From the NCBI GenBank assembly GCA_963422645.2, contig CAXXVO010000004.1:480001-544000 (forward strand): a DNA stretch of 64,000 nucleotides, written 5' to 3'. Source of the stretch: Alphaproteobacteria bacterium. Lineage in GTDB: Bacteria; Pseudomonadota; Alphaproteobacteria; UBA828. The notes beneath the pieces were generated by a model, which made no database searches, was not told where the DNA came from, and was given only the letters and a program-made list of their open reading frames with translations. The position numbers were made by a program, and so were the translations under genes. Below, one piece after another: positions 6,078 through 63,659 of the stretch. The first letter of the stretch is position 1, and each line of letters begins with the position of its first letter.

Positions 6078-6358
6078 CGACGAACCGGACGCCGCTCACC
6101 CATCTCTTTGAGGGTGCCTCAGCGGCACGTGCCCGGCGTCTTTGCGCACCTTTCCACTAGAGCGTATCCGCTTTACGCGGAAACGCTCTAGCGTTTGCCG
6201 TGAAACAGATTCTGGCGAGGGACGCGCGGTGACGCTCCAACCCCGAGGTCACGGCGTTGGCTGAGACCGCCAGGGTCGGCGCGGCGGAGACGAGCGGTGG
6301 ACTTCCCCGATGTGGTCCGAAGCGGTCCCGCGTAGCCGGCTGACGAGATGCGGGCCGC

Positions 6359-7609: not shown

Positions 7610-7699
7610 CGCCTTCCTCCTCATTTGCGCTCTCGCCACGGCGGCGTACGATCACGCCGTGGCATCGCCACGGTGGAGGCGGGGACAGCGGTCGGAAGA

Positions 7700-7960
7700 A
7701 CACGCATCCGACGAGCGGGTGCGGTGCAATTTGCCGCGCGTCCACGGCCACGGGCCGGGTACAATACGGGGTGCGGAGCCGGCCGCCGGAAGCAGTTTTG
7801 TCATCGGGAACTACGTCACCGATATAACGACGCTCACACGTCCCCACCTCCGCCAATACCCATCCTGACACGGCAAATGGGTGCAAGCGCAAGGAAAACG
7901 TCAGCCGAACCGCTCCTGTTTCATGCCACGGGGTGGCTCAGAACCGCGGGGACCATGACT
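7700..7960 (-). ncRNA. Candidate bridge RNA in the IS110 left end
   Basis: ~350-bp non-coding end upstream of the CDS with segments matching the target junction (TTTGTC 7797-7802) and donor junction (TTTGCCG 7730-7736), each beside a hairpin. Confidence 0.6.
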
Positions 7961-8200
7961 GTTTTGTCGCTCACGGCAGTCGGCCTGCGGCCGGCGCCTC
8001 CGCGAGGGCGCCGCTAACGCGGCGGGCCGCGGTCGCGGCCTGTCGCGCGTCCGTCAAAGACGGACACGCTCTAGAACGCGCGGCGCAATTCCGCCACCAC
8101 CCTTCGATTGCAGCCGTGGCACGCTTGGCCCGCGTTTGGTTTCCGATCTGGGGCGCGGTATAAACGCGCGCAGGAACCGGATGGCTAGGGAGGTCATGCC

Positions 8201-9241
8201 ATGAGACACGGCGATATCGTCAGCAGCCCGGATACCGTGGGATGCGCGGTCTTTCAGTACAAGATGCCGCGCCTGCACACGCGCCAGGAGGTGATCGACA
8301 ACTGCAAGAAGATCGGCGACATGATCGTCGGCGCGAAGGTCGGGCTGCCGGGGATGGATCTCGCGATCTTCCCGGAATACAGCACGCACGGGATCATGTA
8401 CGACCGCCAGGAGATGTTCGACACGGCGTCCGAGATCCCGGGGCCTGAGACCGACATCTTCGCCGAGGCCTGCCGCGAGGCGAACACCTGGGGCGTTTTC
8501 TCGCTCACCGGCGAGAGGCACCCGGATCACCCCAACAAGAACCCCTACAACACCCTCATCCTGATGAACAACGAGGGCGATATCGTTCAGAAGTACCGGA
8601 AGATCCTGCCCTGGTGTCCGATTGAGGGCTGGTATCCCGGCAACAACACCTATGTGAGCACCGGGCCCAAGGGGATGAAGATCAGCCTCATCATCTGCGA
8701 TGACGGCAACTATCCCGAGATCTGGCGCGACTGCGCGGTCAAGGGTGCCGAGCTGATCGTCCGCTGCCAGGGCTACATGTACCCGGCGAAGGACCAGCAG
8801 ATCATGATGGCGAAGGCCATGGCCTGGTCCAACTGCTGTTATGTGGCGGTGGCCAACGCCGCCGGTAACGACGGGGTCTACACCTATTTCGGCCACTCGG
8901 CGATCGTCGGCTTCGACGGCCGCACCCTCGGCGAGTGCGGCGAGGAGGAGTACGGCATCCAGTACGCGCAGCTCTCCGTCTCGCAGATCCGCGATTCCCG
9001 CGCCAACGATCAGGCGCAGAACCACCTCTTCAAGCTGATGCACCGGGGCTACACGGGCGTCTATGCCTCGGGCGACGGCGACAAGGGCGTGGCCGAGTGC
9101 CCCTTCGACTTCTACCGCACCTGGGTCGAGGACCCGCGCCGGGCGCAGCAGATGGTCGAGGCAATCACCCGCGACTCCATCGGTGTCACGGGCTGCCCCG
9201 TCGACGGTATTCCCCAGCCGCAGAAGATGGCGGCGGAGTAG
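8201..9241 (+). CDS. amiE: Aliphatic amidase (nitrilase superfamily)
   Basis: MRHGDI N-terminus; FPEYS, KYRK and [15 protein letters not shown] give the E-K-C triad. Confidence 0.95.
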
Positions 9242-9282
9242 GGGAGCGAGCCCCGCTTCAGGCTCTCTGAAGCACTTCAGGA

Positions 9283-9318
9283 CCCCGGCGCCCAGGACTG
9301 CGGGCGCCGGGGTTTGTC
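9283..9318 (+). terminator. GC stem-loop / probable intrinsic terminator after amiE
   Basis: CCCCGGCGCCC...GGGCGCCGGGG followed by TTTGT. Confidence 0.6.
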
Positions 9319-9387
9319 GTTCCAGTGGGCCGGGAGAAGGACCTGCGTTCCAAGCGGGTCGATGGCAACACCGCCTTGGGCTGAATC

Positions 9388-10419
9388 ATGCAATCGCGGC
9401 GCCTGGTACAGATCGTCGGCTGCCATGCGGAAGGCGAGGTGGGCGATGTCATCGTCGGCGGGGTCGCGCCTCCGCCCGGCGACACGCTCTGGGAGCAATC
9501 CCGCTTCATTGCCCGCGATCAGTCGCTCCGCCGCTTCGTATTGAACGAGCCCCGCGGCGGGGTCTTCCGCCACGTCAACTTGCTGGTGCCGCCCAAGGAC
9601 CCTCGGGCCGACATGGGCTTCATCATCATGGAGCCCGAGGACACCCCGCCCATGTCGGGCTCGAATAGCCTTTGCGTGGCCACCGTGCTGCTGGAGACCG
9701 GCATCCTGCCCATGGCCGAGCCCGAGACGGTGATGACCCTCGAAGCCCCCGGCGGTCTCATCCGGGTGCACGCCACCTGCAGCGAGGGGAGGGTCGACTC
9801 CGTCCGCGTCCACAACGTGGCGTCCTTTGCCGCGCGGCTCGGGGCGAGCCTAGAGGTGGAGGGGCTCGGCACGCTCGCCGCCGACACCGCCTACGGCGGC
9901 GACAGCTTCGTGCTGGTGGACTCCGAGGCGCTCGGCTTCGCGCTCAGCCCCGACGAGGCGCGGGACATTGTCGAGACGGGCATCCGGATTACCCGTGCCG
10001 CCAACGAGCAGCTCGGCTTCACCCATCCCGAAAATCCCGACTGGCGCCATATTTCGTTCTGCCAGATCGCCGCGCCGATCCGGGACATCGATGGCGTGGC
10101 GACCGGTCGCAACGCGGTGGTGATCCGCCCGGGCAAGATCGACCGCAGCCCGACGGGCACCGGCTGCTCTGCGCGCATGGCGGTGCTGCACGCGCGGGGC
10201 GAACTCGGGGTCGGCGAGCGTTTTCGGGGCGTATCGATCATCGATTCCGTCTTCGACTGCCGCATCGAGGGGGAAACGACGTTGGGCAGGCGCCCGGCGA
10301 TCCTCCCCTCGGTCTCCGGCCGCGCCTGGCTGACCGGGACGACCCAGCTTCATCTCGACCCGCAAGACCCCTGGCCGGAGGGCTACCGGCTCAGCGACAC
10401 CTGGCGGCCGGGAGCGTAG
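9388..10419 (+). CDS. Proline racemase family protein, Ser/Thr type (probable trans-3-hydroxy-L-proline dehydratase)
   Basis: HAEGE, EPRG, MSGSN and DRSPTGTG motifs (Ser and Thr replace the two catalytic Cys). Confidence 0.82.
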
Positions 10420-10503
10420 AAGGGGGGGGCTCGGCCCGCACTGCGTGCGAGGCAGCGACCCAACGCCGAGCGGGTATGACCCCCCGTTCGCTCGAACGGT
10501 GCC

Positions 10504-11280
10504 TTAGTGCACCAGCGTGCTCGCGGGCTGCACGGCGACCTGCATGCGCTCGAGCGTCGTTCGCACCGCGCTGACCACTTCGGTTGCGTTGGGGCCGTCG
10601 CCGTGGAGCAGGATCGCCTGCGCCTCGAACTCGAGGTCGGTGTCGTCCACCGTGCGCAGCTTGCTTTCCTCGACGAAGCGTTGGACCCGGTCGGCGATAT
10701 AAGCGGGGTCTCTGGCCTGCTTCACCCGCTCCACGATCAGCGAGCCGTCGGCGCGGTAGTCCAGGTCGATGCAGATTTCGTGGATGATGGGAATCCCTTC
10801 GCGCCCGGCGATTTCGTAGAAGCGGTGCCGCTCCAGCGGGGTCGGCCAGTAGAGCACCCAGGGCTCGCCCACGCTGTTGATCGCATCGACCATGGCGCCG
10901 CCGATCTTCTCGTCCCGCGCCAGCATCGGGTAGAGCGCGCCGTGAGGGACCAAGTGGTCGATGGTGGCCCCAACCGATGACGCGATCTGACGCAGCGCCC
11001 CGATCTGGTAGAGCGTGAGGCAGCGCGCCTCATCCGTGGAGATCTTCATCTCGCGCCGGCCGAAGCCGTTGACGTCCGGAAGACCCCAGTGCACGCCGAC
11101 GGCGACGTCGTTTTCCTTGGCGAGCGTCACCGTGCGCTCCATGTGCACCGGATCGCCCGCATGAAAGCCGCAGGCCACGTTGACCGAAGAGAGATGTGGG
11201 ATGATCTCGGCGTCGGCACCGAAGGAGTAGTTGCCGAAGCTCTCACCCACGTCGCTGTTGATGTCCATCGCTCGCTGCAT
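10504..11280 (-). CDS. pxpA: 5-oxoprolinase subunit A (LamB/YcsF)
   Basis: DINSDVGESFG, NVACGFHAGDP, PHGALY, LHGD. Confidence 0.88.
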   Translation of the reverse strand: MQRAMDINSDVGESFGNYSFGADAEIIPHLSSVNVACGFHAGDPVHMERTVTLAKENDVAVGVHWGLPDVNGFGRREMKISTDEARCLTLYQIGALRQIASSVGATIDHLVPHGALYPMLARDEKIGGAMVDAINSVGEPWVLYWPTPLERHRFYEIAGREGIPIIHEICIDLDYRADGSLIVERVKQARDPAYIADRVQRFVEESKLRTVDDTDLEFEAQAILLHGDGPNATEVVSAVRTTLERMQVAVQPASTLVH

Positions 11281-11305
11281 GTCATGTCCCCTGCGTTGCT
11301 CTTCG

Positions 11306-12319
11306 TCAGATGATGATGTCCGGGTCCGCGATCAGCGTTTCCTGCGCGGCGAGAGCCGCCACCGCGTCCTCGTGAGAGATGCGGGAGAAGCGGGTCTCCT
11401 CGAAGGGGCGGACCTGCCCGATGCGCGCCATGTCGGTGGAGATCACGACGGCGATCCGCGCATAGCCGCCGATGCTGGGCGAATCGACGCAGAGCACGAT
11501 CGGCTCGACCCCGGACGGCACCTGCACGGTGCCCACCGGCGCACCGGGATCGATCACGATGTTGGAGGGGTCCTTGCCCGCGTCCTCGATCAGGTAGTGC
11601 GGGCGTCCCGACTTGAAGGAGAGCTCCGGGCCAATGAAGCGCATCCCCGTGCGGTCCGCCTTGGGGTTGAGCTTCCAGTGGGTGGCGTAGAAGGCCTCGA
11701 CGCTGTCGGCGGTGAAGTGATGCTCCTCGGGCCCGGCGACCGTGCGCACCTGCATGGGCGGCGCGTAGCGGGGCACCAGGTCCGGCCGCAGCCGGCGCCC
11801 GGCGAGGTCCGCCACCGCTGCCGTCGCCGCGCCCACCGGCAGGCGGTCGTCCCTTGCGAGCGGGCGCCCCTCCAGCCCGCCGAAGCCGCCGCTGACATGG
11901 GTGGCGCGGCTGCCCCGGTAGGGCGGCACGTCGATGCCGCCGTGGACCGCGAGGTAGGCCCGCGCGCCGCTCAGCGCGAGGCCGCAGGCGAGCGTCTGGC
12001 CCTCGCGCAGCACGAAGCTCGCCCAGCAGGGTACCGCCTCGCCGTCCACCGTCGCGCCCGTGTCCGCGCCGGTGAGAGCCAGCACGTGGTCCTGAAGGGC
12101 CCTGAGCTTCAGCCGGCCGAGAGTCAGCTCCAGCCCTGCCGCGCCGGGGTCGTCGCGTATCAGCAGTGGCCCTCCCGGCGGGTTGCCGACGAGCAGATTG
12201 GCGATCCTGAGGGCGAAGCCGTCCTGAGCGCCGGAGGGAGGAATACCCAGAGCCTGGCCGCCGCGGCGCCCCATGTCCTGGACCGTGGTGCGCAGGCCGC
12301 CGTCGATGACCTCCAGCAT
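11306..12319 (-). CDS. pxpC: 5-oxoprolinase subunit C / AHS2 domain protein
   Basis: TTVQDMGR, ANLLVGN, GARAYLAVHGG, DRTGMRF, GGYARIA. Confidence 0.88.
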   Translation of the reverse strand: MLEVIDGGLRTTVQDMGRRGGQALGIPPSGAQDGFALRIANLLVGNPPGGPLLIRDDPGAAGLELTLGRLKLRALQDHVLALTGADTGATVDGEAVPCWASFVLREGQTLACGLALSGARAYLAVHGGIDVPPYRGSRATHVSGGFGGLEGRPLARDDRLPVGAATAAVADLAGRRLRPDLVPRYAPPMQVRTVAGPEEHHFTADSVEAFYATHWKLNPKADRTGMRFIGPELSFKSGRPHYLIEDAGKDPSNIVIDPGAPVGTVQVPSGVEPIVLCVDSPSIGGYARIAVVISTDMARIGQVRPFEETRFSRISHEDAVAALAAQETLIADPDIII

Positions 12320-48376: not shown

Positions 48377-49585
48377 ATGAATGAGATGCCGCCGGCGCCC
48401 GACGAGACGGCGCTTCGGCTCGGCCGGCTGGCGCGGCTACGCGCCGAGATGGCGCGGTTGGGTTTCGCGGCGTTGGTGCTGACCGATCCGCACAATGTGC
48501 GCTACGCGACCGGCGCCCGAAACATGATGCCCTTCGTCCTGCGCAATCCGGCGCGCTACGTGTTCGTGCCCCTGGAGGGGCCGGTTGTCTTGTTCGAGTT
48601 CGCGGGTTGCGAGCACCTGGAACGCGACAATCCGGCGGTTGACGATATCCGAGTCTCCACAACGGTCTCTTACGTTGCGCGGGGGCCGCTGCTCGATGAG
48701 ACGGCCAAGGTCTGGGCCGGAGAGATCGCTGCGCTGATGCGCCAGCACTGCCCGGGCGAAACGCGGATCGGGTTGGAGCGCATCGATGCGCGTGCCGTAG
48801 GCTATCTGGCGGAACAGGGGTTCGCGATCCTAGATGCTCAAGCGCCGGCGGAGAGGGCACGCTCCATCAAGACACCGGAGGAGATTGTTTGCTCTAAGCG
48901 CTCGATGGCGTGCGTTATGGCGGCAGAGAGAGCGTTGGAGGAGGCCATCAGGCCCGGGATCACTGAGAACGCGCTGTGGGCGGAGTTCCATCGTCACGTG
49001 ATCGCGAACGACGGGGACTACGTGGAGACGCGGTTGCTCAGCTCGGGCGAGAGAACCAACCCCTGGTTTCAGGAGACCGGCCCGCACGTAATCCGTGCCG
49101 GCGACTTGGTGGCCCACGATACCGACGTGATCGGACCGCACGGTTACTACGCAGATTTCTCACGCACCTTCCTTTGCGGCGAAGAGGGGCCGACGCCGGA
49201 ACAGCGAACGCTCTATCGTCTCGCCCACGACCAGATCCAGCACAATATGGCGCTGATCAAACCGGGGCGAACCTTTCGGGAAATTACGGAAGCGGCCTGG
49301 AAAATGCCCGCGCCATATTACGCAAGACGGTATTACCTCATGATTCACGGCATCGGGATGACCGGCGAGTATCCTTACATCGTGTACGAAGCCGATTACG
49401 ACGCCGGGCAGGACTACGACGGCATCGTCGAGCCCAACATGACGCTCTGCGTGGAAAGCTTCATCGGTCACGAGGATGGAGGCGAAGGGGTAAAGCTGGA
49501 GCAACAGGTTCTGGTTACCAAGACAGGCTTCGAACTGATGAGCACGTACCCTTTCGACGAAAGGTTGCTCGGCCGCGAGGTGTGA
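48377..49585 (+). CDS. M24 metallopeptidase-fold protein, DddP-like
   Basis: ETRLLSSGERTNPWFQE, DTD..D, HGIG, CVES, KLEQQ. Confidence 0.8.
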   Translation: MNEMPPAPDETALRLGRLARLRAEMARLGFAALVLTDPHNVRYATGARNMMPFVLRNPARYVFVPLEGPVVLFEFAGCEHLERDNPAVDDIRVSTTVSYVARGPLLDETAKVWAGEIAALMRQHCPGETRIGLERIDARAVGYLAEQGFAILDAQAPAERARSIKTPEEIVCSKRSMACVMAAERALEEAIRPGITENALWAEFHRHVIANDGDYVETRLLSSGERTNPWFQETGPHVIRAGDLVAHDTDVIGPHGYYADFSRTFLCGEEGPTPEQRTLYRLAHDQIQHNMALIKPGRTFREITEAAWKMPAPYYARRYYLMIHGIGMTGEYPYIVYEADYDAGQDYDGIVEPNMTLCVESFIGHEDGGEGVKLEQQVLVTKTGFELMSTYPFDERLLGREV

Positions 49586-49587
49586 GG

Positions 49588-50208
49588 ATGGGGACGCTCT
49601 TTCCTCCGCTTCCGCCTGGCCCCTTCGACATCATCTACGTCGACCCTCCGTGGGACTATCGCGGGCAGCTCCAGCACGCCGGCGAGGGAACCCAGGATAC
49701 GGGCGGTGCGATCAGGCACTATCCAACGGTGACCCTGCACGACCTCAAGACCTTGAATGTCCCCGGTATTTGTGCGCAAGACTGCCTGCTATTCATGTGG
49801 GCGACCAACCCGCATCTTGATCAAGCCATTGACTTGGGAAAGGCGTGGGACTTTGCATGGGCGACGGTTGCGTTTGTGTGGGATAAAGTGAGGGTGAATC
49901 CCGGCTTTTATACCATGAGCCAATGCGAGTTGTGCCTCGTGTTCAAGAGGGGGAAGATCCCGTCCCCGCGTGGCGCGAGGAATGTTCGCCAACTCGTCAC
50001 CGCTAAGCGCGGGGCTCACTCGCAAAAGCCGGACGAGGTGTGGCTCCGCATCGAGAAAATGTTCCCACTCCTCCGCAAGATCGAACTGTTTGCTCGTGAA
50101 ACCGACGAAGAGAGTCTCGTCGATCACCAGTGGACGAGATGGGGGTTCGAAGCCCGTGATGCAGAAGCATCTGGAGTGGCGCGAGAGTTGGCAGGCGGAG
50201 GCCGCTGA
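49588..50208 (+). CDS. MT-A70 family N6-adenine DNA methyltransferase (M.MunI-like)
   Basis: DIIYVDPPW, LFMW, FVWDK, HSQKP, IELFAR. Confidence 0.88.
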   Translation: MGTLFPPLPPGPFDIIYVDPPWDYRGQLQHAGEGTQDTGGAIRHYPTVTLHDLKTLNVPGICAQDCLLFMWATNPHLDQAIDLGKAWDFAWATVAFVWDKVRVNPGFYTMSQCELCLVFKRGKIPSPRGARNVRQLVTAKRGAHSQKPDEVWLRIEKMFPLLRKIELFARETDEESLVDHQWTRWGFEARDAEASGVARELAGGGR

Positions 50209-50321
50209 GAGGGGGGGAGAAGCGTCGAGAAAATTCGTAACTACCCAGGTACCCCAATCCTGAGTTGAGGACGGTGATTATGGCGGCGGCCGCGGTCTGG
50301 TTCTGCCACCGCGATTGGTTC

Positions 50322-50381
50322 TTGACCTCATAGAGTTGCGGGACTATGGACTGCTCTCTCGCGTGACGGGAGCGGTCCATG
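50322..50381 (+). promoter_or_regulatory. Sigma70-like promoter plus RBS/start-sequestering hairpin in the IS66 left end
   Basis: TTGACC-N17-TATGGA (50322-50350); ATGGACTGCTCTC pairs with GGGAGCGGTCCAT (50346-50380). Confidence 0.55.
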
Positions 50382-51044
50382 GGGTATTTCGGCTCGAAGG
50401 CGACAGCAGGTCTGTGCCAAGCGCTGATTGCGCTGATGCCGCCGCACTCCGTCTACATCGAAAGCCACCTTGGGGGCGGGGCGCTGACGAAGCGCAAGCC
50501 GCCGGCCGTGCGTTCGATCGGCATCGACCGCGATGCGCAGGCGCTCGAGGCCTTCGTCTGCGACTACCCGGTCGATCTGGTTCACGGCTGTGCCCATGAC
50601 TTCCTGGCCTCGTTCCCGTTCCTGGGCCCGGAGCTGGTTTACAGCGATCCGCCCTATCTGCACGCGACCCGCCGCTCGGCGCAGCGCTACCGCTTCGAGT
50701 ACGAGGAGGCCGGCCACGTCGCGCTTCTCGCGCTGCTCAAGGCTCTGCCCTGCCAGGTCATGATCTCGGGCCATCCGTCGGCGCTCTATGACGAGGTGCT
50801 GGCGGGATGGCGCCGGCTGGCGCTGCAGGTCACGACCCAGGGTCTGGTGCGAACCGAGGTCGTCTGGTTCAACTACGCCCCCGACCGGATGCATTGGGCC
50901 AGCCACGCAGGCCGGAACTTCACCGACCGCCAGCGCATCAAGCGCAAGGCAGCCAACTGGGGCCGGCGCTACCAGGCCTTGCCGCCGGGCGAACGCCTCG
51001 CCGTGCTCGCCGCCATGATGGCCGTCGAGGCCGAAGACACGTGA
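50379..51044 (+). CDS. Dam-like (D12 class) N6-adenine DNA methyltransferase
   Basis: GYFGSK, YIESHLGGGA (motif I) and VYSDPPY (motif IV). Confidence 0.88.
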   Translation: MGYFGSKATAGLCQALIALMPPHSVYIESHLGGGALTKRKPPAVRSIGIDRDAQALEAFVCDYPVDLVHGCAHDFLASFPFLGPELVYSDPPYLHATRRSAQRYRFEYEEAGHVALLALLKALPCQVMISGHPSALYDEVLAGWRRLALQVTTQGLVRTEVVWFNYAPDRMHWASHAGRNFTDRQRIKRKAANWGRRYQALPPGERLAVLAAMMAVEAEDT

Positions 51045-53248
51045 CGGTGTCGCACTGGCACGAAGACCTCGCCGCCCGTAACGAGGCCTTCTGCTGCCTG
51101 AAGGAGCTTCTCGAGCCATCATCCCTCGCAACCACTGTCGTCGTTGCCGTCCGGGAATGGGGGCAGGGGCTGCTGCGATCAGCCACCGCGCTCGCCCGGG
51201 AAAATGCCGCACTCGAGCAGGAGAACGCGGCCCTGCGCGAGCGCATCGCCGAACTCGAGCGCAGCGCGGCCCTCAACAGCACCACAAGCAGCAAGCCCCC
51301 CGCCAGCGACGGGCTCAAGAAGAAAAGCGGAGCCCAGAGGCGCACCCAAAGCCAGCGCGGAAAGTCCGGCGGGCCCAGTGGCGGCCAGCCCGGCCACAAG
51401 GGAACCACCCTCGCGCGGAGCGACAGCCCGGACCGTGTCGTCGATCACCACCCCTCCACCTGTTCCGGCTGTGGCGTCGAGCTCTCGGACGCCGACCGGC
51501 AAGGCGCGCCCGCCTGTCGGCAGGTCTTCGACGTACCCGAGCCGCAGCCTCTCGAGGTCACCGAACACCGCGCTCATCGCTGCCTCTGCGGCGCATGCGG
51601 CACGCTGACACGAGCCGCCTTCCCGCCGGGCGTCACCGCCCCGGTCCAGTACGGCCCTCGCATCACCGCTTGGGTGAGTTACCTGCTGTACGCCCAGTTC
51701 GTGCCCGAGAAGCGTCTGGCCGAACTCATGAGCGACATCTTCGCGGTGTCCATCTCCACTGCCACGATCGCCGCCATGGGCCGGCGCACAGCGCAGCGCT
51801 TCGAGGGCTTCCTCGACCATGTCGCCGATCTGATCCGCACGCAGGCGCCGGTCAAGCACCTCGACGAGACCGGCCTGCGTATCGCCGCCCGTACCCGCTG
51901 GCTCCATGTGCTGTGCACCCCGTTGCTCACCGTCCTGCGCATCGGCGAGGGACGCGGCGATGTCGAAAAGAACCTGAAAGGCATCCTCGTCCACGACGAC
52001 TTCGCCCCCTACTTCACCATCAAGGGCGTCCGCCACGGCGCCTGCAACGCACATCACCTGCGCGAACTCCAGGCCCTGATCGACATCGAGAAGGAGGAAT
52101 GGGCGGCGAGCATGCACCGCCTGCTTCAGCGCGCGCGCAGGGCCGCCCGCTTCGCCCGTGAGAAAGACCGTCAAGTCCCCGCCTCCCTGGTGGCCCGCAT
52201 CTCAAGGGCATGGGACCGTATCCTCGAAGAAGCCATCGCCTTCCATGAGGCCCAACCGCCGCTCCAGATCGCAAAGCGAGGGCGAAAGAAACGCCGCATC
52301 GGCCACAACCTCAGACTTCCTGACCTCTGCTGATTTTAGGTGACACGAGCCGCGCGGATTCCGAGGCCCCGTCGATGTCGTAGACTATGCGCAGACGGGT
52401 GCCGGGGAAGACCGTTTCGGTGGCGTTCAGGTCGCTCAGAACCGCATCGATCCAACGGTCGCAGGCGTCGTTTGCGAGGCCAAGAATGTGGACCCGCAGG
52501 AGGCCATTGCCAGGATCCGGCAGGATGTCGGCATCGGCGGTGAGCAGCGCTTGAAGCAGTTTCCGGGGATGGGGCTTGTGGCCCTGCGCCTGCATGACGG
52601 GAAGCATCATGCGGGTTTCGGCGCGGTAGGCGATCATCCGGATGACGTCGAGGAGGAGGCGCTCGCGCGCGGGCAAGGCATCGAGCTGCTCGGCTTCGTC
52701 GAGGTCGCCGGCCCGGCAGTGCTTGGGCGTCTCCCTGCGGCTGGCCCTGACGATGTCGCGGACATCCTGGAGGTCCCTGACTTCCCTCCTGAGTTCCGCC
52801 GTCGGCTGCTTCTTCCGGGCCGTGTCGGCGATGCGGTTGCGCAGGCGGCCAAGCTGGCGGTCGAGGCGATGGATTGCCTTGTCATAGGCCCGCCGCAGCG
52901 GGTTGACGACCATGGCGGCGGGATCGAGAGGCTCGAGCTCGTGGGTCGGCAGGGCGTCGAGATTGAACTCGTCACGCATGTACTTGAAGAAGTTCTCCTG
53001 CGACCAGCGCGAGAACATGGCGCCCGCAACCTCAGCCATCGGCTTGTGCGGATCGGTGGTGATCAGCGGCACCTGACGGCCGTTGTCGAGCAGGCGGCGG
53101 ATCTGGCGCACCCTGAAGCCGTTCGGCAACGTCACCGGCTTCTCAGCCAGCCGCATGGTGGCGCTGCCGTCCGCCGCCGGTCCGTGAATGGGAACGGTCA
53201 TCGCGCCGAAGTCCTCGGCCGGCCAGTCCTCGCCCCTGAAGTTCTTGT

Positions 53249-55407
53249 CCCAAGTTGGCACTTTTTCCGTTTGTTCGGGGCCGAATTGGCCAGGTTTTTC
53301 CGGCTGACACACCAGATATAGCGTTGACGAGAAGGGCACGCCCCTACATTTGCGATTGCCGTCTCGAACTCCCTTTGTAGTGCCAGGGAATGGTGGGTTT
53401 GCAGGATTTCCCTTGACCCCACCACCAAAGCCGACATATCTGAACCCGCCACGACCAAAACGTGCCGGGCGACATGTTCATCAGGGCAACCAAGACCCAC
53501 ACTACCGAAGGCAAGCCGGTCCGCAGCCATCGCCTCGTGCTCTCGCAGCGCATCGGCGACAAGGTCAGGCAGCGCACGCTTCTCAACCTCGGCACCGACT
53601 ATCCGGTGCCGAAGGAGAAATGGCGCGAAGTTGCCGGACTCGCCGAGGCGCTGCTCAACGGCCGCCCGCCGCTGCTCGAAGCCGCGCCGGACGTGCAGGC
53701 CGCAGCCGAGGACATCGTCGCCAAGCTCAGGGCCAGGGGGTTCCGCCCCGAGGCGATACAGGAAGAGGCGCGCAAGCCCGACATCGCCACCGTCGACCTC
53801 GATACCCTGGAGCACGAGAACCCGCGCACGGTCGGCTGCGAGCGCCTGTGCCTCAAGGCCCTCGACGACCTCGGCTTCGCCGACATCCTCCACGGCCTCG
53901 ATATCAAGGGCCGCGACGGGCGCATCGCCAGCGCGCTGATCGTCGCCAGGATGGTCCATCCCGCCAGCGAGCGTGACACCAGCCGCTGGCTGCGCCGCGA
54001 CAGCGCGACCGCCGAGCTCCTGGGGCTGGAGGGCGACCGCAAGGCGCTGCGGCGCAAGACGCTCTACCGCATCGGCGACCTGCTCTGGCGCCACCGGGAC
54101 GCCATTCAGCGGGAGCTGTTCAACCGCGAGCGCGCGCTGCTCGACCTGCCCGAAACGATCGCCTTTTACGATCTCACCAATGTCCACTACCACGGCCACA
54201 CCCACGGCCAGCTTCCCAGGTTCGGGCGCTCCAAGCAGAAGCGCGACGACTGTCCGCTGATCACGCTGGCGCTGGCGCTCGACGGCGCAGGCTTCCCGCG
54301 CAGTTGCGAGATCCTGCCGGGCAACGTGAGCGAGCCGGGCACGCTGGAGGACGCGCTGGTCAGGCTCGAGGCGGTGTGCGGCGGCACGGCGCCGAAGCCC
54401 ACGGTGGTCATGGACGCGGGCATCGCCACCGAGGAGAACGTCGCGTGGCTGGGCGAGCAGGGCTACGACTGGATCGCGGTCAGCCGCGGCGCCAGGCCGC
54501 CGCTGCCCGAGGGCGGGCCCGAGGCTCTGCTGATCACCAGCGCGCGGCACGAGGTGCGCGCCTGGCGGCTTGCCAGCGAGGACGGCGAGGCGCGGCTCTA
54601 CGTCGTCAGCGAGGGCAAGAAGAAGGCCGAGAACGCGATCATCGGCCTCAGGCGGAACCGCTTCGAGGCGGCGCTGGAAAGGCTCCATAGCGGCCTGCCG
54701 GTCAAGGGCCGCCTCAAGCGCTACGACAGGGTGCTGGAGAGCATTGGCCGTCTCAAGCAGCGCTTCTCCACCGTCGCCAGACACTACGAGGTCACGGTCG
54801 AGAAGGCGAAAACCGGCCCCAACGCCGCCGCCGTGCGCTTCAAGCGCAGGCCGCAATACGACGAGGCCGACGAGGGCGCCGGCGCCTATGTGCTGCGCAC
54901 CAGCCACGTCGACTGGGATATCGAGACGATCCTGCGGACCTACTGGCGCATCACCGACATCGAGGCCACCTTCCGCAGCCTGAAATCCGAGCTCGGCCTT
55001 CGCCCGATCTGGCACCAGCTCGACCGTCGCATCGCGGCCCACCTGCTGATCGCCGTGCTGGCCTATCACGCCGTGCATCTGATCCGTACCCGACTGGCCG
55101 CGCGGGGCATCCACAAGTGCTGGGCATCGATCCGCGAGGGCATGCGGACCTGGGTGCGGATCACCACGCGACTGCGCCAGACCGACGGCACCTTGATCGT
55201 CAACCGCCAGGACACGCGCCCGGCCGCCGAGGTCGCCCAAATCTCCTCGGCGGCGGGTGTTGACCCCGCCATCCACCGCACGAGGACCCGCCTGACGAGC
55301 TGACAGAATCTCACAAAATGTAGTGCCATGTTGGAATCGGCAGAGAAAAATATTGCGCCATATCAAAGCGATAAACGACAGCAGAACACAAAAAGTGCCA
55401 ACCTGGG
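53249..55407 (+). mobile_element. IS1634-family element copy 1 (2159 bp)
   Basis: IR CCCAAGTTGGCACTTTTT / AAAAAGTGCCAACCTGGG; 4-bp TSD TTGT. Confidence 0.93.
53474..55303 (+). CDS. IS1634 transposase
   Basis: MFIR...VRQRTLLNLG, FYDLT, FGRSK, VVMDAG, IEATFRSLKSELGLRPIWH. Confidence 0.92.
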   Translation: MFIRATKTHTTEGKPVRSHRLVLSQRIGDKVRQRTLLNLGTDYPVPKEKWREVAGLAEALLNGRPPLLEAAPDVQAAAEDIVAKLRARGFRPEAIQEEARKPDIATVDLDTLEHENPRTVGCERLCLKALDDLGFADILHGLDIKGRDGRIASALIVARMVHPASERDTSRWLRRDSATAELLGLEGDRKALRRKTLYRIGDLLWRHRDAIQRELFNRERALLDLPETIAFYDLTNVHYHGHTHGQLPRFGRSKQKRDDCPLITLALALDGAGFPRSCEILPGNVSEPGTLEDALVRLEAVCGGTAPKPTVVMDAGIATEENVAWLGEQGYDWIAVSRGARPPLPEGGPEALLITSARHEVRAWRLASEDGEARLYVVSEGKKKAENAIIGLRRNRFEAALERLHSGLPVKGRLKRYDRVLESIGRLKQRFSTVARHYEVTVEKAKTGPNAAAVRFKRRPQYDEADEGAGAYVLRTSHVDWDIETILRTYWRITDIEATFRSLKSELGLRPIWHQLDRRIAAHLLIAVLAYHAVHLIRTRLAARGIHKCWASIREGMRTWVRITTRLRQTDGTLIVNRQDTRPAAEVAQISSAAGVDPAIHRTRTRLTS

Positions 55408-57811
55408 TTGTGCCAGGTCAGGCAGGCGACGCCGCGCCTCGCCAGCCGGCGGAACAGATCCGGGCTCCAGCCCTCGCGGTCGAAGACCAGGGTGAGCGCC
55501 GGCTGGCCGGGATGCTCGGCGGTCAGGTCCGGCGCCCCGGCGCCAACGATCCCAAGCTCCTGCAGCGCCGGCACCACGTCGGCTTCGATGGCCGCGACCA
55601 TCTTCGGGTCCAGCGGCTTGTGCAGACAGAGCAGCGGCTTGCCGCCCAGAGCGTTGATCCAGTAGCTGGCGCTCGCCGGCAGGCACAGCTTCTCGCGCGA
55701 GACGAAGTGCTTGGGCAAGCGCCCCTTGCGGCCGGAGTAGACCTTGACGTGCCCGTCGATGGCCAGCGTCGCCCAGAGCTCCGGCTCGTCGGCCTTGCCA
55801 GCGCCTGGCAAGGGCGAGCTGCCACGCCCGCACGCCGGCCTCGTCGTCGGCGATGAGAGCGATCTTGCGGCGCAGCGTCTTGACCTCGGGGCAGCGATCG
55901 AGGCCGAGAATGGCGCCCCATTCGCCCGGCGCCTGGTAGCGCAGGCTCTCGGGGTTGCGCACCCGCGCCAAGGTCATGAAGGCCAGGAAGAGCAGGATCG
56001 TAGGCAAGCCGTAATAGCCCTTCGGCAGCAATGGCAGGAGACCGGTCTCGGAGAGAAGACCTTCCTTCAGCAGGGCCGGCAGGGCGGCGAGCACGCCGCC
56101 GAAGCGGACACCGCGGGCGGCGGCGGCGAACTGCGGTTCGACCGGCCCCGCCTGTCCACAACTGGCCAGAACCCGAGCCGGAACATCGCAAGTCGCACGC
56201 CCCATCGGCGCCTGCCGGTCCCGCCGATCGCGCGCGCTGCGATCCGTTTGCGGCTGCGCTTCCAGCCCCGGCGCCGTCTCCGGCCCCGGGGCACCGGTAC
56301 TCTCTTCATCGACACGGCCTTCAGGAGCCGCACCCGCGTCAGGCGGCGCAGCCAGCGCTGAGCGTCCGGGCTCCCCATCCGCCTCCGTGTTGCCGATCAG
56401 TCCCTGACGGCGCCACTTGTTGACCGATGGCGCTGACACGCCGAGAACCCGGGCCGCCGCAGAGCCGCTCAGGCCCGATGCCAGCAACGCCGTCGCCTTC
56501 TCCGCCAACTCCGGAGTGAACACCGACGGCCCGCGACCGCGCCGGGGCTTCATGAACCCCGCTTCGCCCTCGGCCAGGTAGCGCCGTCGTGCGCGCTGCA
56601 CCGTCGCGCGCGAGACAGCGAAAGCGTCAGCCAGTTCCTGCGGCGAGACCGCGCTGATCGCCGCGAGGCGGCCGATCCGCAAGAGCATGGCCGTGCGGTC
56701 ATCGGCGGCGTGGCTGTCAAAGGGAATGAGGTTGGAAAAGTAGGTGAAGGTGTCGTCCGAGATCAGGACGGCGAAGCAGCTGTTGCCGATCGAGACCGCC
56801 TCTGGAGGGCACATTGGGAGGGTACTGGGCATGGTTGAGACCCCGTGCAATTGGTATCAAATTATAATATCAGACCTCGGGCGCGACACCCAGCGAAAAA
56901 CCGCCTGAAACAACCGAAATGTATCAGAATTCAAGGAGTTCCCGGCACGCTGCCCAGAACAGCCAGCATCACGAGGTCAGGAAGTCTGAACCTCGCGCGC
57001 CGCCTTCAAAAGCATAAGGAGGGCTGCCTGCGCTTCCTCACCGACCTGCGCACGCCGTTCACGAATAACGAGGCGGAGCGTGACATCCGTATGAACAAAG
57101 TGCATGAGAAGATCTCAGGCGGCTTCCGCTCCCTGCAAGGCGCCTGCAACTTCGCCGGAATGCGCAGCGTCATCGTCACCGCTCGAAAGCAAGGCTGGAA
57201 CATCCTGCAAATCCTGGCGCACCCGGAACCGATGCAGCTGATCCCTATACTGCGCTCCTGAACTTCTCCGGCTCATCCTGAGTATCGCTGTCCTCTCATC
57301 TTGTTCGCGACGCGGCGTTCATCATCCTCTCGCGCTCAAGAGAGTAGGCACCCCCGCGGCGTGGGGGCGTTGACGCAAAAGGAACTGGCTTGTTCCATAA
57401 GAGAGAGGGGGTACCTGGGCAGTTACGAAAATACTCGATCCAATAATGCTGCGGAATACCAGAGTCGATTAGAGTGATCGGAATTCAGCCTCAAAATGTC
57501 TTTCCAGATTGGTGAATTTTCGCAGATGAAGTTGCTCCCAATCCTTGCTACAGGAAAGAGATTATTAATTGGTATCAGAGGATCCAACCACTGTCCTGTT
57601 ATGGGGGAATATCATTGATTACGGACCAATCATCGATCACGTTGAAGAGTACGTGCGCCCCTCCTGTCGTAAATCGAAAAGCGGAAAACATCGCATTGCT
57701 TGACCGAAAAAATTGGATCAGTCTTACATCGCTGGCGAGTAGGAGAGAGCTGAACGTGCGAGGCGGTCTATGAGGAAGGGGGTGCCGGGTAGCAAGGGAG
57801 GCTCAGTTGCC

Positions 57812-58381
57812 GTGAAGCGTCTCTGCTTCTTGGTTCCGCTGATCGTCCTGCTCTTCATCCCCGGAGCAAGCTGGGCTTTCTACAAGCCGGTGCGTGTCCT
57901 TGCGCCCGAACTCAATGGCGTGACGTGCGTCACCGATGCGATCTGCGTGGAAGATTTGGCGCGCTACGAGGAGGCGTCGGTCCTCTATGAGGAGGGCTTC
58001 ACGTTCGTGAATAAGGTGGTGGGTGCAATTGAGGAACCGCCGCGCGTCATTTTCTGCTCCACGCAAGGCTGCTTCGAGTCCTTTGGATTCGACCGGGCGG
58101 CCGCACATACAGTGGGCGTGTCGGGCATCGTTGTGGGTCCTCGGGGATGGAAGCGCTACTACATGCGCCACGAGATGATCCACCATCTGCAAGCGGAGCG
58201 TCTCGGTGTTTTCGAGCAGTGGCGCAGTCCCGATTGGCTCAAGGAGGGAATGGCTTACGCGATGAGCCGGGACCCTCGACCCGTTCTGTCCGAGCCCTGG
58301 CAAGGATACCGTTCGCAGTTCGAGGCATGGTCGCAATCGGTGGGAAGGGAGCGTCTATGGATAGAAGCGGCAAGGCTGTGA
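57812..58381 (+). CDS. Putative exported HExxH (zincin-like) protein
   Basis: Signal-like N-terminus; RHEMIHH...PDWLKEGMAY. Confidence 0.65.
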   Translation: MKRLCFLVPLIVLLFIPGASWAFYKPVRVLAPELNGVTCVTDAICVEDLARYEEASVLYEEGFTFVNKVVGAIEEPPRVIFCSTQGCFESFGFDRAAAHTVGVSGIVVGPRGWKRYYMRHEMIHHLQAERLGVFEQWRSPDWLKEGMAYAMSRDPRPVLSEPWQGYRSQFEAWSQSVGRERLWIEAARL

Positions 58382-58428
58382 AGCGCCAATCTGGCGGCCG
58401 TGCCAGTGTTTCGCGCCAACACGGTGCG

Positions 58429-59619
58429 ATGGAGCACAGCACCCCGCCCTGCGATCTCGACGCGGTAAGTCTCTATCGGCTCGGGCGCGTGCGCGAGGCC
58501 CTGGCGGCGCGGGACCTCGCCGGCATCATCCTCTACGACCCGGTGAACATCCGCTACGCGACCGATTCGCCGAACATGCAGGTCTGGTGCACCCACAACG
58601 AGGCGCGCTACCTCTACGTGTCGGCCGAAGGCCTGGTCACGCTCTTCGAATTCGGCGGGGGCAGTGACCTGCTCACTTCGGGACTTCCCACAATCGACGA
58701 GGTCCGCGCCGCGACCTTCGTGCTCTACTTCATCGCTGGCGGGCGACAGGCGGACAACGCGCGGGCCTGGGCGGCCGAGCTGGATTCGGTGATCCGCGAG
58801 CAAGGCGGCGGCAACAAGCGTATCGCCATCGACCGCGTCGGACCGGTGGGCTTCATGGAGATGCAGCGCCTCGGGTATGAAATCCACGACGGCTTCGAGG
58901 TGATGGAGAACGCCCGGACGATCAAGTCGGCGGGCGAGATCACCCTGATGCGCCATGCCATCGCCGTCTGCGAGCAGGCCATTCAGGGGATGCGGGAGGC
59001 GCTCAGGCCCGGCATCACGGAGAATGCGCTCTGGGCCGAGCTCCACCGCGGCAACATCGCGGGCGGCGGCGAGTGGATCGAGTGCCGCCTGCTGGCCTCC
59101 GGGCCGCGCACCAACCCGTGGTTCCGCGAGTCCTCGATGCGGGTCATCGAGCGCGGCGACATCGTGGCCTTCGACACCGACCTTGTGGGCCCCTACGGCT
59201 ACTGCTGCGACATCTCGCGCACCTGGGTGTGCGACGCGCGTCCCAGCGACGAACAGCGGCGCATCTACGCCGAGGCCCACGCTCACATTCAGCACGACAA
59301 GGCGCTGCTGAAGCCCGGTGTGAACTTCCGCGAGCTGACCGAGCTGCTCCGCCCCCTAGGCGACGAATTCGTCGAGGGCCGCTATTCGGTGTCGATGCAC
59401 GGGGTGGGGCTTTGCGACGAATACCCGGCGATTCCCTACCCGCAAGACTATGAGCCCGGAGACGACGGCGTACTGCAGGCGGGGATGGTAATGTGCGTCG
59501 AAGGCCTCGCCGCACCCGCTGGCGGTCGCGAGGCGGTCAAGCTGGAGGAACAGGTGCTGATCACTGAAGATGGCTGCGAGCAACTCTCATCCTACCCGTT
59601 GGAGGAGGACTGGCTGTAG
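58429..59619 (+). CDS. M24-fold protein, DddP (DMSP lyase)-like
   Basis: DPVNIRYATDSPNMQVW, GGEWIECRLLASGPRTNPW, FDTDLVGPYGYCCDISRT, HGVGLCDEYP, KLEEQV. Confidence 0.8.
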   Translation: MEHSTPPCDLDAVSLYRLGRVREALAARDLAGIILYDPVNIRYATDSPNMQVWCTHNEARYLYVSAEGLVTLFEFGGGSDLLTSGLPTIDEVRAATFVLYFIAGGRQADNARAWAAELDSVIREQGGGNKRIAIDRVGPVGFMEMQRLGYEIHDGFEVMENARTIKSAGEITLMRHAIAVCEQAIQGMREALRPGITENALWAELHRGNIAGGGEWIECRLLASGPRTNPWFRESSMRVIERGDIVAFDTDLVGPYGYCCDISRTWVCDARPSDEQRRIYAEAHAHIQHDKALLKPGVNFRELTELLRPLGDEFVEGRYSVSMHGVGLCDEYPAIPYPQDYEPGDDGVLQAGMVMCVEGLAAPAGGREAVKLEEQVLITEDGCEQLSSYPLEEDWL

Positions 59620-61257: not shown

Positions 61258-61290
61258 GTCTCCGGCACGAGTGTCTCCGGCACGAGTGTC
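61258..61290 (+). repeat. 15-bp tandem duplication
   Basis: GTCTCCGGCACGAGT x2 plus GTC (LRHEC x2). Confidence 0.85.
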
Positions 61291-61294
61291 CTGA

Positions 61295-63453
61295 CCCAAG
61301 TTGGCACTTTTTCCGTTTGTTCGGGGCCGAATTGGCCAGGTTTTTCCGGCTGACACACCAGATATAGCGTTGACGAGAAGGGCACGCCCCTACATTTGCG
61401 ATTGCCGTCTCGAACTCCCTTTGTAGTGCCAGGGAATGGTGGGTTTGCAGGATTTCCCTTGACCCCACCACCAAAGCCGACATATCTGAACCCGCCACGA
61501 CCAAAACGTGCCGGGCGACATGTTCATCAGGGCAACCAAGACCCACACTACCGAAGGCAAGCCGGTCCGCAGCCATCGCCTCGTGCTCTCGCAGCGCATC
61601 GGCGACAAGGTCAGGCAGCGCACGCTTCTCAACCTCGGCACCGACTATCCGGTGCCGAAGGAGAAATGGCGCGAAGTTGCCGGACTCGCCGAGGCGCTGC
61701 TCAACGGCCGCCCGCCGCTGCTCGAAGCCGCGCCGGACGTGCAGGCCGCAGCCGAGGACATCGTCGCCAAGCTCAGGGCCAGGGGGTTCCGCCCCGAGGC
61801 GATACAGGAAGAGGCGCGCAAGCCCGACATCGCCACCGTCGACCTCGATACCCTGGAGCACGAGAACCCGCGCACGGTCGGCTGCGAGCGCCTGTGCCTC
61901 AAGGCCCTCGACGACCTCGGCTTCGCCGACATCCTCCACGGCCTCGATATCAAGGGCCGCGACGGGCGCATCGCCAGCGCGCTGATCGTCGCCAGGATGG
62001 TCCATCCCGCCAGCGAGCGTGACACCAGCCGCTGGCTGCGCCGCGACAGCGCGACCGCCGAGCTCCTGGGGCTGGAGGGCGACCGCAAGGCGCTGCGGCG
62101 CAAGACGCTCTACCGCATCGGCGACCTGCTCTGGCGCCACCGGGCCGCCATTCAGCGGGAGCTGTTCAACCGCGAGCGCGCGCTGCTCGACCTGCCCGAA
62201 ACGATCGCCTTTTACGATCTCACCAATGTCCACTACCACGGCCACACCCACGGCCAGCTTCCCAGGTTCGGGCGCTCCAAGCAGAAGCGCGACGACTGTC
62301 CGCTGATCACGCTGGCGCTGGCGCTCGACGGCGCAGGCTTCCCGCGCAGTTGCGAGATCCTGCCGGGCAACGTGAGCGAGCCGGGCACGCTGGAGGACGC
62401 GCTGGTCAGGCTCGAGGCGGTGTGCGGCGGCACGGCGCCGAAGCCCACGGTGGTCATGGACGCGGGCATCGCCACCGAGGAGAACGTCGCGTGGCTGGGC
62501 GAGCAGGGCTACGACTGGATCGCGGTCAGCCGCGGCGCCAGGCCGCCGCTGCCCGAGGGCGGGCCCGAGGCTCTGCTGATCACCAGCGCGCGGCACGAGG
62601 TGCGCGCCTGGCGGCTTGCCAGCGAGGACGGCGAGGCGCGGCTCTACGTCGTCAGCGAGGGCAAGAAGAAGGCCGAGAACGCGATCATCGGCCTCAGGCG
62701 GAACCGCTTCGAGGCGGCGCTGGAAAGGCTCCATAGCGGCCTGCCGGTCAAGGGCCGCCTCAAGCGCTACGACAGGGTGCTGGAGAGCATTGGCCGTCTC
62801 AAGCAGCGCTTCTCCACCGTCGCCAGACACTACGAGGTCACGGTCGAGAAGGCGAAAACCGGCCCCAACGCCGCCGCCGTGCGCTTCAAGCGCAGGCCGC
62901 AATACGACGAGGCCGACGAGGGCGCCGGCGCCTATGTGCTGCGCACCAGCCACGTCGACTGGGATATCGAGACGATCCTGCGGACCTACTGGCGCATCAC
63001 CGACATCGAGGCCACCTTCCGCAGCCTGAAATCCGAGCTCGGCCTTCGCCCGATCTGGCACCAGCTCGACCGTCGCATCGCGGCCCACCTGCTGATCGCC
63101 GTGCTGGCCTATCACGCCGTGCATCTGATCCGTACCCGACTGGCCGCGCGGGGCATCCACAAGTGCTGGGCATCGATCCGCGAGGGCATGCGGACCTGGG
63201 TGCGGATCACCACGCGACTGCGCCAGACCGACGGCACCTTGATCGTCAACCGCCAGGACACGCGCCCGGCCGCCGAGGTCGCCCAAATCTCCTCGGCGGC
63301 GGGTGTTGACCCCGCCATCCACCGCACGAGGACCCGCCTGACGAGCTGACAGAATCTCACAAAATGTAGTGCCATGTTGGAATCGGCAGAGAAAAATATT
63401 GCGCCATATCAAAGCGATAAACGACAGCAGAACACAAAAAGTGCCAACCTGGG
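61295..63453 (+). mobile_element. IS1634-family element copy 2 (2159 bp)
   Basis: Same IRs as copy 1; 4-bp TSD CTGA. Confidence 0.93.
61520..63349 (+). CDS. IS1634 transposase
   Basis: Same protein as copy 1 except HRD to HRA. Confidence 0.92.
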   Translation: MFIRATKTHTTEGKPVRSHRLVLSQRIGDKVRQRTLLNLGTDYPVPKEKWREVAGLAEALLNGRPPLLEAAPDVQAAAEDIVAKLRARGFRPEAIQEEARKPDIATVDLDTLEHENPRTVGCERLCLKALDDLGFADILHGLDIKGRDGRIASALIVARMVHPASERDTSRWLRRDSATAELLGLEGDRKALRRKTLYRIGDLLWRHRAAIQRELFNRERALLDLPETIAFYDLTNVHYHGHTHGQLPRFGRSKQKRDDCPLITLALALDGAGFPRSCEILPGNVSEPGTLEDALVRLEAVCGGTAPKPTVVMDAGIATEENVAWLGEQGYDWIAVSRGARPPLPEGGPEALLITSARHEVRAWRLASEDGEARLYVVSEGKKKAENAIIGLRRNRFEAALERLHSGLPVKGRLKRYDRVLESIGRLKQRFSTVARHYEVTVEKAKTGPNAAAVRFKRRPQYDEADEGAGAYVLRTSHVDWDIETILRTYWRITDIEATFRSLKSELGLRPIWHQLDRRIAAHLLIAVLAYHAVHLIRTRLAARGIHKCWASIREGMRTWVRITTRLRQTDGTLIVNRQDTRPAAEVAQISSAAGVDPAIHRTRTRLTS

Positions 63454-63659
63454 CTGAGCTGGCGCTCGCCAAGGAAGAGCAGCGGGAGCTTCTGGAGGCG
63501 GTGCGGGAGGTTCGCGCGCTGATGCTGGAGGGGGAGGATGCGGGTCCCCTGGTGTGCGACATGCAGGAGCGGATCGCGGTGCAGTTCGACGCCTGGGCGT
63601 CTGCGATGGCCGGATCGGGCCGCTCGGAAGAGCTGTGCGCGGCGCTCGCCTCGGTGGTG

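Follow-up and report, generated by a model that had tools for sequence, protein, structure and literature searches.

The stretch of DNA analysed here (the window) comprises 64,000 nucleotides (nt) of an alphaproteobacterial contig and contains, at positions 50237-57426, a decayed member of a widespread type of insertion sequence (IS), which belongs to the IS66 family and carries, directly upstream of its transposase gene tnpC, an intact gene (50379-51044, forward strand) for a 221-amino-acid (aa) protein with a methyltransferase fold. The closest studied relative of this protein is Upf31 of IncP-1beta plasmids. Judged from the sequences compared, the gene of about 220 codons forms a cassette together with a leader hairpin and a promoter-like site that includes the inverted repeat CATAG-N10-CTATG. 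The simplest reading of its relationships is that this cassette has repeatedly been exchanged between transposase backbones, apparently among unrelated ones: two clades of IS66 elements, IS701-family elements and elements with a transposase of the DDE_Tnp_1_assoc type. On balance we favour the view that the cassette is a portable autoregulator, whose protein represses its own promoter and in this way throttles expression of the transposase.

Distribution of the cassette among bacteria and insertion sequences

A genome scan with one genome per species returned 330 relatives of the 221-aa protein, the best 80 of which correspond to 79 distinct loci that were all inspected; these loci are the nearest relatives, and many of the copies share a genome. 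They are spread over 38 species-level genomes from six phyla (by record title), the source taxa being Alpha-, Beta- and Gammaproteobacteria, Tectimicrobiota, Planctomycetota, Chloroflexota, Acidobacteriota and one metagenome-assembled genome labelled Bacillota. Several genomes hold 5-9 copies, and copies from the same genome are 99-100% identical. At 65 of the 79 loci the gene is directly followed by a gene for an IS66-family TnpC, an arrangement that is far beyond chance because it is repeated at so many related loci. Clade A of these transposases, to which the TnpC of the window belongs, accounts for 28 loci and clade B for 37 (7 of them truncated or frame-shifted). The two clades share 68-73% identity in the first gene, while the TnpC proteins of clade B show only 25-31% identity to that of the window. 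The first-pass annotation of the window had allowed for a one-off capture, with homologues mostly located outside IS66 elements; with 65 of 79 loci linked to IS66, and with the gene lying inside GTAAC ends wherever an IS66-type element was mapped, the opposite was found. At seven further loci (L030-33, L041, L042, L071) an IS701-family transposase follows (NF049999, 300-313 bits against a cut-off of 170), and at two others (L047, L049), as well as in a second copy in L040, a transposase with DDE_Tnp_1 and DDE_Tnp_1_assoc domains. The downstream gene is of unknown kind at three loci (L029, L038 and L054, the last being L038 with an IS1634 insertion), and at two the contig ends after the gene.

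Element boundaries were obtained by comparing pairs of copies within genomes and, for L049, by a search for inverted repeats (IRs). In every mapped element the gene lies inside the element's own ends. These ends begin with GTAACTAC... in the IS66 type, whose mapped relatives are flanked by exact 8-bp duplications (for example CAATAATT in L003, GTTGAACC in L005 and CTCCTGGG in L057), and with CTCGACTTTGT... in the IS701 type, where the duplication is CTNAG and the cassette gene again lies inside; in the third, DDE_Tnp_1_assoc type they begin with CCAGCAGTTCTC... (one element, L049). The distance from the stop codon of the first gene to the start codon of the transposase gene is -4 nt (GTGA) in clade A and between -1 and +30 nt in clade B. 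It is again -4 nt (ATGA) in L041, L042, L071 and L049, and +112 nt in L030-33. For these last four loci, a GTGA overlap was considered as the start of the transposase and rejected, since it lies in another frame and the true ATG follows 112 nt downstream.

The similarity between one IS701-type and one IS66-type element that were compared is limited to a segment that extends from about 73 nt upstream of the start codon to about 18 nt past the stop codon of the first gene, with a nucleotide identity of 83%. In an unrooted tree of 58 unique sequences, obtained by a quick search, the IS-borne genes stand apart from the plasmid-type genes (support 99), and the IS701-linked genes nest with the clade-A-linked and with some alphaproteobacterial clade-B-linked genes (support 97); the IS clade further includes two representatives whose context is unknown. 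The matches on plasmids (196 records, 134 of them conjugative, including upf31.0 of IncP-1) are stand-alone genes with less than 60% identity throughout, and another 78 matching records are from phages.

For a selection analysis, 18 representative intact elements were chosen. The ratio of nonsynonymous to synonymous substitution rates (dN/dS) is mostly 0.1-0.3, indicating purifying selection on the first gene along with the transposase, and in 49 of 52 pairs with the same backbone the first gene is the better conserved of the two. The first-pass annotation had described the gene as part of a mobile module of IS66. This holds in so far as the gene is integral to the elements, coupled to the transposase and under purifying selection together with it, but the module is not specific to IS66, as it is also found with IS701-family and DDE_Tnp_1_assoc transposases. 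Control of the element's own transposition, which had likewise been suggested, remains the most likely purpose of the gene.

The encoded protein and its relative Upf31

The 221-aa protein contains the motifs MGYFGSK (residues 1-7), HLGGGA (residues 30-35, with GGG at 32-34) and DPPY (residues 90-93) and has basic C-terminal helices at residues 171-219. The first-pass annotation had correctly read an intact ORF with GYFGSK, HLGGGA and DPPY. Its label "Dam-like", however, is a weak one, which we would keep for the S-adenosylmethionine (SAM)-binding and DPPY motifs only. The protein does not reach the cut-offs of PF02086 (D12 class; E 0.17, 12 bits against 22) and TIGR00571 (Dam; 21.1 bits against 114.85, over residues 85-150 only), and a Dam-type recognition domain is missing, because only about 55 residues lie between the glycine motif and DPPY. 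Searches of Pfam and NCBIfam assigned the first gene to no family, and a sequence search of the PDB chains gave no match.

An AlphaFold model built from an alignment of 21 sequences (predicted local distance difference test, pLDDT, 80.5; predicted template modelling score, pTM, 0.74) shows a class-I SAM methyltransferase core followed by the C-terminal helices at 171-219. Foldseek matched this model to generic methyltransferases only, with E. coli Dam among the best at a template modelling (TM) score of 0.53-0.55, over about 250-260 alignment columns for a query of 221 residues. The prediction of a homodimer scored 0.22 against a mark of 0.42, which counts neither for nor against dimerisation. 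The protein belongs to a large family, with 3704 proteins at E <= 1e-3 in a collection clustered at 90%, the best 120 of which are 69-99% identical and 185-264 aa long, and with further matches to 5554 clusters at 50% identity. Among 87 full-length representatives drawn from the 150 best family matches, the residues D, P, P and Y of the DPPY motif are kept in 85, 87, 85 and 83 sequences, respectively, and the glycine motif in 77-82; in the sequences examined here the glycine motif is N-terminal to DPPY. Within the IS clade, G32-G34 and D90-P92 are invariant and Y93 is nearly so.

The window protein is 45% identical to Upf31 of plasmid pBP136 (residues 1-218 against 1-222, E 2e-67). The homology spans the full length of both proteins (224 aa in Upf31, 221 aa here) and includes the basic C-terminal domain, GGG and DPPY. 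Upf31 (upf31.0) of the IncP-1beta plasmids, e.g. pBP136, is described by Elg et al. (Mol Biol Evol 2025, PMC11997246; bioRxiv 10.1101/2024.02.05.579024). There, Upf31 is predicted as a Dam-like methylase and placed in methyltransferase group beta, and it showed neither methylation of GATC nor a signal in SMRT (single-molecule, real-time) sequencing in methylation-free E. coli (PMC11997246). It brings the activity of its own promoter region (68 bp) down from 4.76 to 0.09 reporter units; this repression requires the C-terminal domain, modelled by these authors as a dimerisation domain, and Upf31 is proposed to act through KorB (PMC11997246). Their search for homologues was a nucleotide search of plasmids, and the word "transposase" does not occur in the paper (PMC11997246). 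The Upf31 gene differs from those studied here in being a stand-alone plasmid gene with no adjoining transposase, and the IS-borne clade is separate from it in the tree.

Upstream region and proposed mode of action

Upstream of the first gene of the window, a promoter-like site is located at 50322-50350 (forward strand), which consists of TTGACC (50322-50327), a 17-nt spacer and TATGGA (50345-50350). Over it lies the proposed operator, made up of the half-sites CATAG (50329-50333) and CTATG (50344-50348) and the 10 nt between them. The upstream regions of 75 loci and the window, with four loci excluded that have less than 110 nt upstream, yielded 43 unique sequences. TTGAC is kept in 42-43 of these and is followed 17 nt later by TATGG. 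Conservation is symmetric over the half-sites (C31 A36 T43 A43 G43 and C41 T41 A43 T37 G36; n=43), and the 10 bases between them are variable. The C just outside the -10 box is present in 41 of the 43 sequences, against 24 for the last T of the -10 box itself. This difference fits an operator better than a plain promoter, and self-repression would agree with a conserved symmetric repeat that overlies the promoter. The promoter of Upf31 starts with TTGACAGCATCG where the IS cassettes have TTGACATCATAG; what the two share is a TTGACA promoter with a repeat of the CAT(C/A)G type directly behind it.

In the leader hairpin (50344-50382, forward strand), the ribosome-binding site and the start codon are base-paired with the -10 region. 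For the window it has a folding energy of -27.1 kcal/mol (z-score -5.65, with 0 of 200 shuffled sequences as stable), and comparable hairpins (z <= -2.2) are found in 7 of the 12 elements folded. As the AUG and the -10 region are the partners in its outer stem, the hairpin would form only in transcripts entering from outside. In IS10 and IS50, a fold-back structure inhibits such read-through transcripts.

From the anatomy, distribution and selection observed for these elements, and from the homology to Upf31, we infer a mode of action in which the protein would bind the CATAG-N10-CTATG inverted repeat in its own promoter. The transposase gene lies directly after the first gene or overlaps it; it is thus part of the same message and made only when the first gene is made. 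Repression of the shared promoter would keep both the protein and the transposase at a low, self-limiting level, as Upf31 does at its own promoter, and the hairpin would block the translation of read-through transcripts that originate outside the element.

Several points weigh against this view. The identity between the window protein and Upf31 is only 45%, the operator proposed for Upf31 (CAGCATCG repeats) differs from that of the IS cassettes, and KorB, its proposed partner, is absent from these IS elements. Against 0.5 occurrences expected by chance, the window contains the palindrome once, so that it is not significant there; what weight it has would come only from its conservation among sequences that are related by descent. 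A consensus promoter scan calls no sigma-70 site in the window copy, because the -10 box reads TATGGA. Of the 12 elements folded, 5 have a leader hairpin that does not reach significance, and the gap of +112 nt in L030-33 means that tight translational coupling is not universal. The supporting tree is a quick and unrooted one, and the set of 79 loci is restricted to the nearest relatives and contains many copies that share a genome. Finally, a pure repressor needs no SAM-binding or DPPY motifs, yet D-P-P-Y is kept in 83-87 of the 87 representatives.

Repression alone does not account for the strict conservation seen in the catalytic motifs, which leaves room for a bolder and, in our view, rather unlikely reading in which methylation of the operator is coupled to replication. 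The protein might then be an active adenine methyltransferase of narrow specificity, which methylates the adenines of the half-sites over the -10 box and makes the element a self-contained epigenetic timer. The fully methylated promoter would be off, and the hemimethylated promoter behind the replication fork would briefly be on, tentatively allowing one pulse of methylase and transposase per replication. With similarly limited confidence, this would be an element-encoded version of the control that host Dam exerts on IS10 and IS50, and one might also, with some hesitation, picture a portable circuit that has been handed between at least three unrelated IS families. The DPPY, GGG and acidic-residue motifs, which are essentially invariant in the IS clade (D-P-P-Y also family-wide), are in agreement with an active enzyme, as is the model, which has a class-I SAM methyltransferase fold and counts E. 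coli Dam among its best matches. In addition, each half-site contains an invariant TAG, with the adenines on opposite strands across the -10 box. However, there is no Dam-type recognition domain (about 55 residues from motif I to DPPY; TM-score to Dam at most 0.55), and methylation is hypothetical for every member of this family. The first-pass annotation had proposed an epigenetic writer; this is unproven. Upf31, the only relative studied, acts as an autorepressor and gave neither GATC methylation nor a kinetic (SMRT) signal, though the catalytic motifs are conserved. The negative SMRT result came from cells with an expression vector, and a target confined to the operator would be missed if the operator was absent from them.

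Host Dam methylation controls IS10, IS50 and IS903 (PMC9296519). The likeness to the elements described here is one of concept only, namely a transposase promoter whose sensitivity to methylation links transposition to replication, and an adenine methylase fold with DPPY. In the case of Dam the methylase is provided by the host and its site is GATC, whereas here the gene is borne by the element and lacks the Dam recognition domain, and methylation is hypothetical.

It is improbable that the gene is a mere passenger, i.e. an orphan methyltransferase which as cargo helps the host or the vehicle, by protection from restriction or a change of the methylome, and has no role in transposition. Relatives with 43-56% identity do occur as stand-alone genes on conjugative plasmids (134 of 196 plasmid records) and also in phages (78 records), and orphan plasmid methylases can protect entering DNA, as described for M.EcoGIX (PMC7736820). 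Yet cargo that is needed once per cell would not stay intact in all of the 5-9 near-identical copies per genome, nor would it stay better conserved than the transposase. Moreover, the gene is always located upstream of the transposase and usually coupled to it, and the conserved promoter and palindrome come along with it. The same paper describes M.EcoGIX and M.BceJIII as small orphan DPPY single-strand methyltransferases of group beta from conjugative plasmids, with homologues of M.EcoGIX abundant on IncI and IncF plasmids (PMC7736820). They resemble the present proteins as small DPPY proteins located on mobile DNA, and they are silent on double-stranded genomic DNA (PMC7736820). Membership in their family was nevertheless rejected, as neither IncI nor IncF is named among the matches listed (60 of 196 plasmid records) or in the organism counts, and M.EcoGIX is thus a member of another family. 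For an element moving inside a cell, there is no support for self-protection from restriction, which had been suggested in the first-pass annotation.

We also doubt strongly that the protein is a cofactor of transposition proper, for example by helping to recognise the ends, choose the target or mark the donor DNA, like TnpA and TnpB in canonical IS66. It would be made in a fixed ratio with the transposase, and the IS66-type ends contain CTAC, which matches a CTAY half-site; the ends of the IS701 type, however, are without such a half-site, and a cofactor would have to serve three or four unrelated transposases with unrelated ends. Furthermore, among the nearest TnpC relatives, the two inspected (of 281 records) have the architecture of single-gene elements. 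A one-off capture or decaying pseudogene of no consequence, as which the gene might be taken given that the window's element is dead with its TnpC split twice, is refuted by the gene being intact here, by the same architecture in 65 of 79 relatives from 38 genomes and by dN/dS well below 1.

Comparison with known elements and implications

Insertion sequences are usually viewed as a transposase and ends, with control residing in the transposase gene or borrowed from the host. The elements described here appear to have a separate control cassette with a methyltransferase fold at its core; it surpasses the accompanying transposases in conservation and is present across IS66, IS701 and a third type. 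This would be a concrete, testable case of a modular regulator common to transposon families, of relevance to both transposon and plasmid biologists. It also connects this module with the Upf31 proteins of broad-host-range plasmids, which are puzzling in that they resemble methylases and are reported to repress themselves and not to methylate, and it is a natural system in which to ask whether a mobile element carries its own replication-coupled switch of the Dam/IS10 kind. If replication-coupled control by the element's own methylase were true, it would be the first known transposase-control module exchangeable among IS families, and it would explain why "silent methylases" of the Upf31 type retain catalytic motifs. 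With respect to annotation, genes of this kind are now named "DNA adenine methylase" and counted as orphan methylases, and many of them are parts of insertion sequences.

What is new is the joining of an IS66 or IS701 element to an Upf31-type regulator, each part being of a known kind. Full-text searches of the literature brought up no account of methylase-like genes within IS66 or IS701 elements, although an entry in ISfinder or REBASE is possible. ISfinder uses the term tIS for insertion sequences with a passenger gene between their ends; the cassette gene differs from such passengers in that it is located upstream of the transposase gene and coupled to it, is common to several IS families and is better conserved than the transposase.

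Canonical IS66 elements have the organisation tnpA-tnpB-tnpC, and TnpA and TnpB are required for transposition. The window element shares with them the transposase family, the GTAA ends, the 8-bp duplication and translational coupling of genes upstream of tnpC, but it has neither TnpA nor TnpB, and its upstream gene encodes an unrelated methyltransferase fold. A second group for comparison are single-gene IS66 elements, which we take to be those called ISBst12/ISGst1-like, a group name in part supported by annotation. These also have the DDE_Tnp_IS66, zf-IS66 and DUF6444 domains, GTAA ends and an 8-bp duplication and no tnpA or tnpB; the type found in the window has, in addition, an upstream gene that comes with a promoter of its own. 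Of the 281 records with the nearest TnpC relatives on plasmids, 2 were inspected, and both are IS66 elements with a single gene. The first-pass annotation had put the methylase gene in the place of the canonical tnpA and tnpB. This is right with respect to position, but the notion that the methylase replaced tnpA and tnpB was rejected, given the single-gene architecture of these relatives.

The element in the window and its surroundings

The extent of the IS66 element at 50237-57426, with GTAAC/GTTAC inverted repeats as given in the first-pass annotation, was confirmed to the base, and both its ends and the target duplication were located. The left end (IRL, 50237-50255, forward strand) is GTAACTACCCAGGTACCCC, and the right end (IRR, 57407-57426, reverse strand) reads GTAACTGCCCAGGTACCCCC in reverse complement; the two match at 18 of 19 positions, and a repeat finder returned the pair with a length of 31 nt and 87% complementarity. 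The left copy of the 8-bp target duplication is GAAAATTC (50229-50236) and the right copy GAAAATAC (57427-57434), with 7 of 8 positions the same. The IS66 family is defined by terminal inverted repeats starting with GTAA and by an 8-bp target duplication. Both a DDE transposase and GTAA-type ends with an 8-bp duplication are present in the window element; of the three genes of canonical IS66 it has no tnpA or tnpB, and upstream of tnpC only the gene with the methyltransferase fold is found.

The first gene begins 142 nt after IRL, and its TGA overlaps the GTG start codon of TnpC (at 51041) in the sequence GTGA (51041-51044). This overlap, too, had been noticed at first pass, and the TnpC relatives align from the GTG codon onward with 77-92% identity. 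The 5' part of TnpC (51041-52310, forward strand; residues 1-423) contains PF03050 (E 5.7e-26), zf-IS66 and DUF6444 and is, although truncated, on its own above the cut-off for NF033517 (195 bits against 180). The 3' part (56990-57261, forward strand; the last 90 residues) is contiguous with it in the relatives. In the window, TnpC is interrupted at 52310/56990 by a nested IS of 4679 bp (52311-56989, reverse strand) with a Transposase_29 (PF21804) gene, perfect 17-nt IRs and the 3-bp duplication ACC, which itself contains an IS1634-family IS (about 53243-55413, forward strand; NF033559, 258 bits). As TnpC is split twice by these two nested ISs, the window's own IS66 element is dead, while the methylase gene is still intact, just as the first-pass annotation had stated.

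The Transposase_29 IS (2.5 kb) is present in two copies in the window, one intact (1217-3730) and the interrupted one that breaks TnpC (52311-56989). A second copy of the IS1634-family IS at 61289-63459 is 99.8% identical to the first, which indicates that this IS was recently active in this genome. The reading frame of TnpC is open for 234 nt upstream of the GTG (ORF 50807-52333), across the 3' end of the first gene; similarity in this other frame recurs in the relatives because the DNA is conserved, and it yields spurious protein matches. The N-terminal 44-58 residues of the clade A TnpC proteins (51041-51180 in the window, residues 1-45) are unmatched in the nearest plasmid-borne IS66 transposases and may represent an extension specific to cassette-bearing elements.

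Some additional features were noted in the sister elements. Those of the IS701 type have at their left end an ORF of about 95 aa on the opposite strand (5472-5760 in L032 and 5611-5900 in L041, both reverse strand), a third conserved gene with a weak match to DUF3024 (E 1.2e-3). L002 holds two clade A copies in head-to-head orientation (1971-4185, reverse strand, and 6001-8215, forward strand), about 1.5 kb apart, which could move the intervening DNA as a composite transposon. Downstream of the element in L049 there are very long open frames (6698-11464, forward strand, and 8174-11476, reverse strand); they have no family match and are probably due to a GC-rich or repetitive stretch.

With respect to the genomic neighbourhood, a gene for an MT-A70 family methyltransferase (PF05063, E 1.6e-18; 49582-50208) stops 20 nt before the target duplication of the IS66 element, so that two adenine-methylase-like genes are adjacent to each other. 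When rejoined, the insertion site forms the near-palindrome TCGAG AAAATA CTCGA. The region comprising the MT-A70 gene, the IS and a small secreted protein is flanked by paralogous M24 peptidase/creatinase-N genes at 48377-49585 and 58147-59619.

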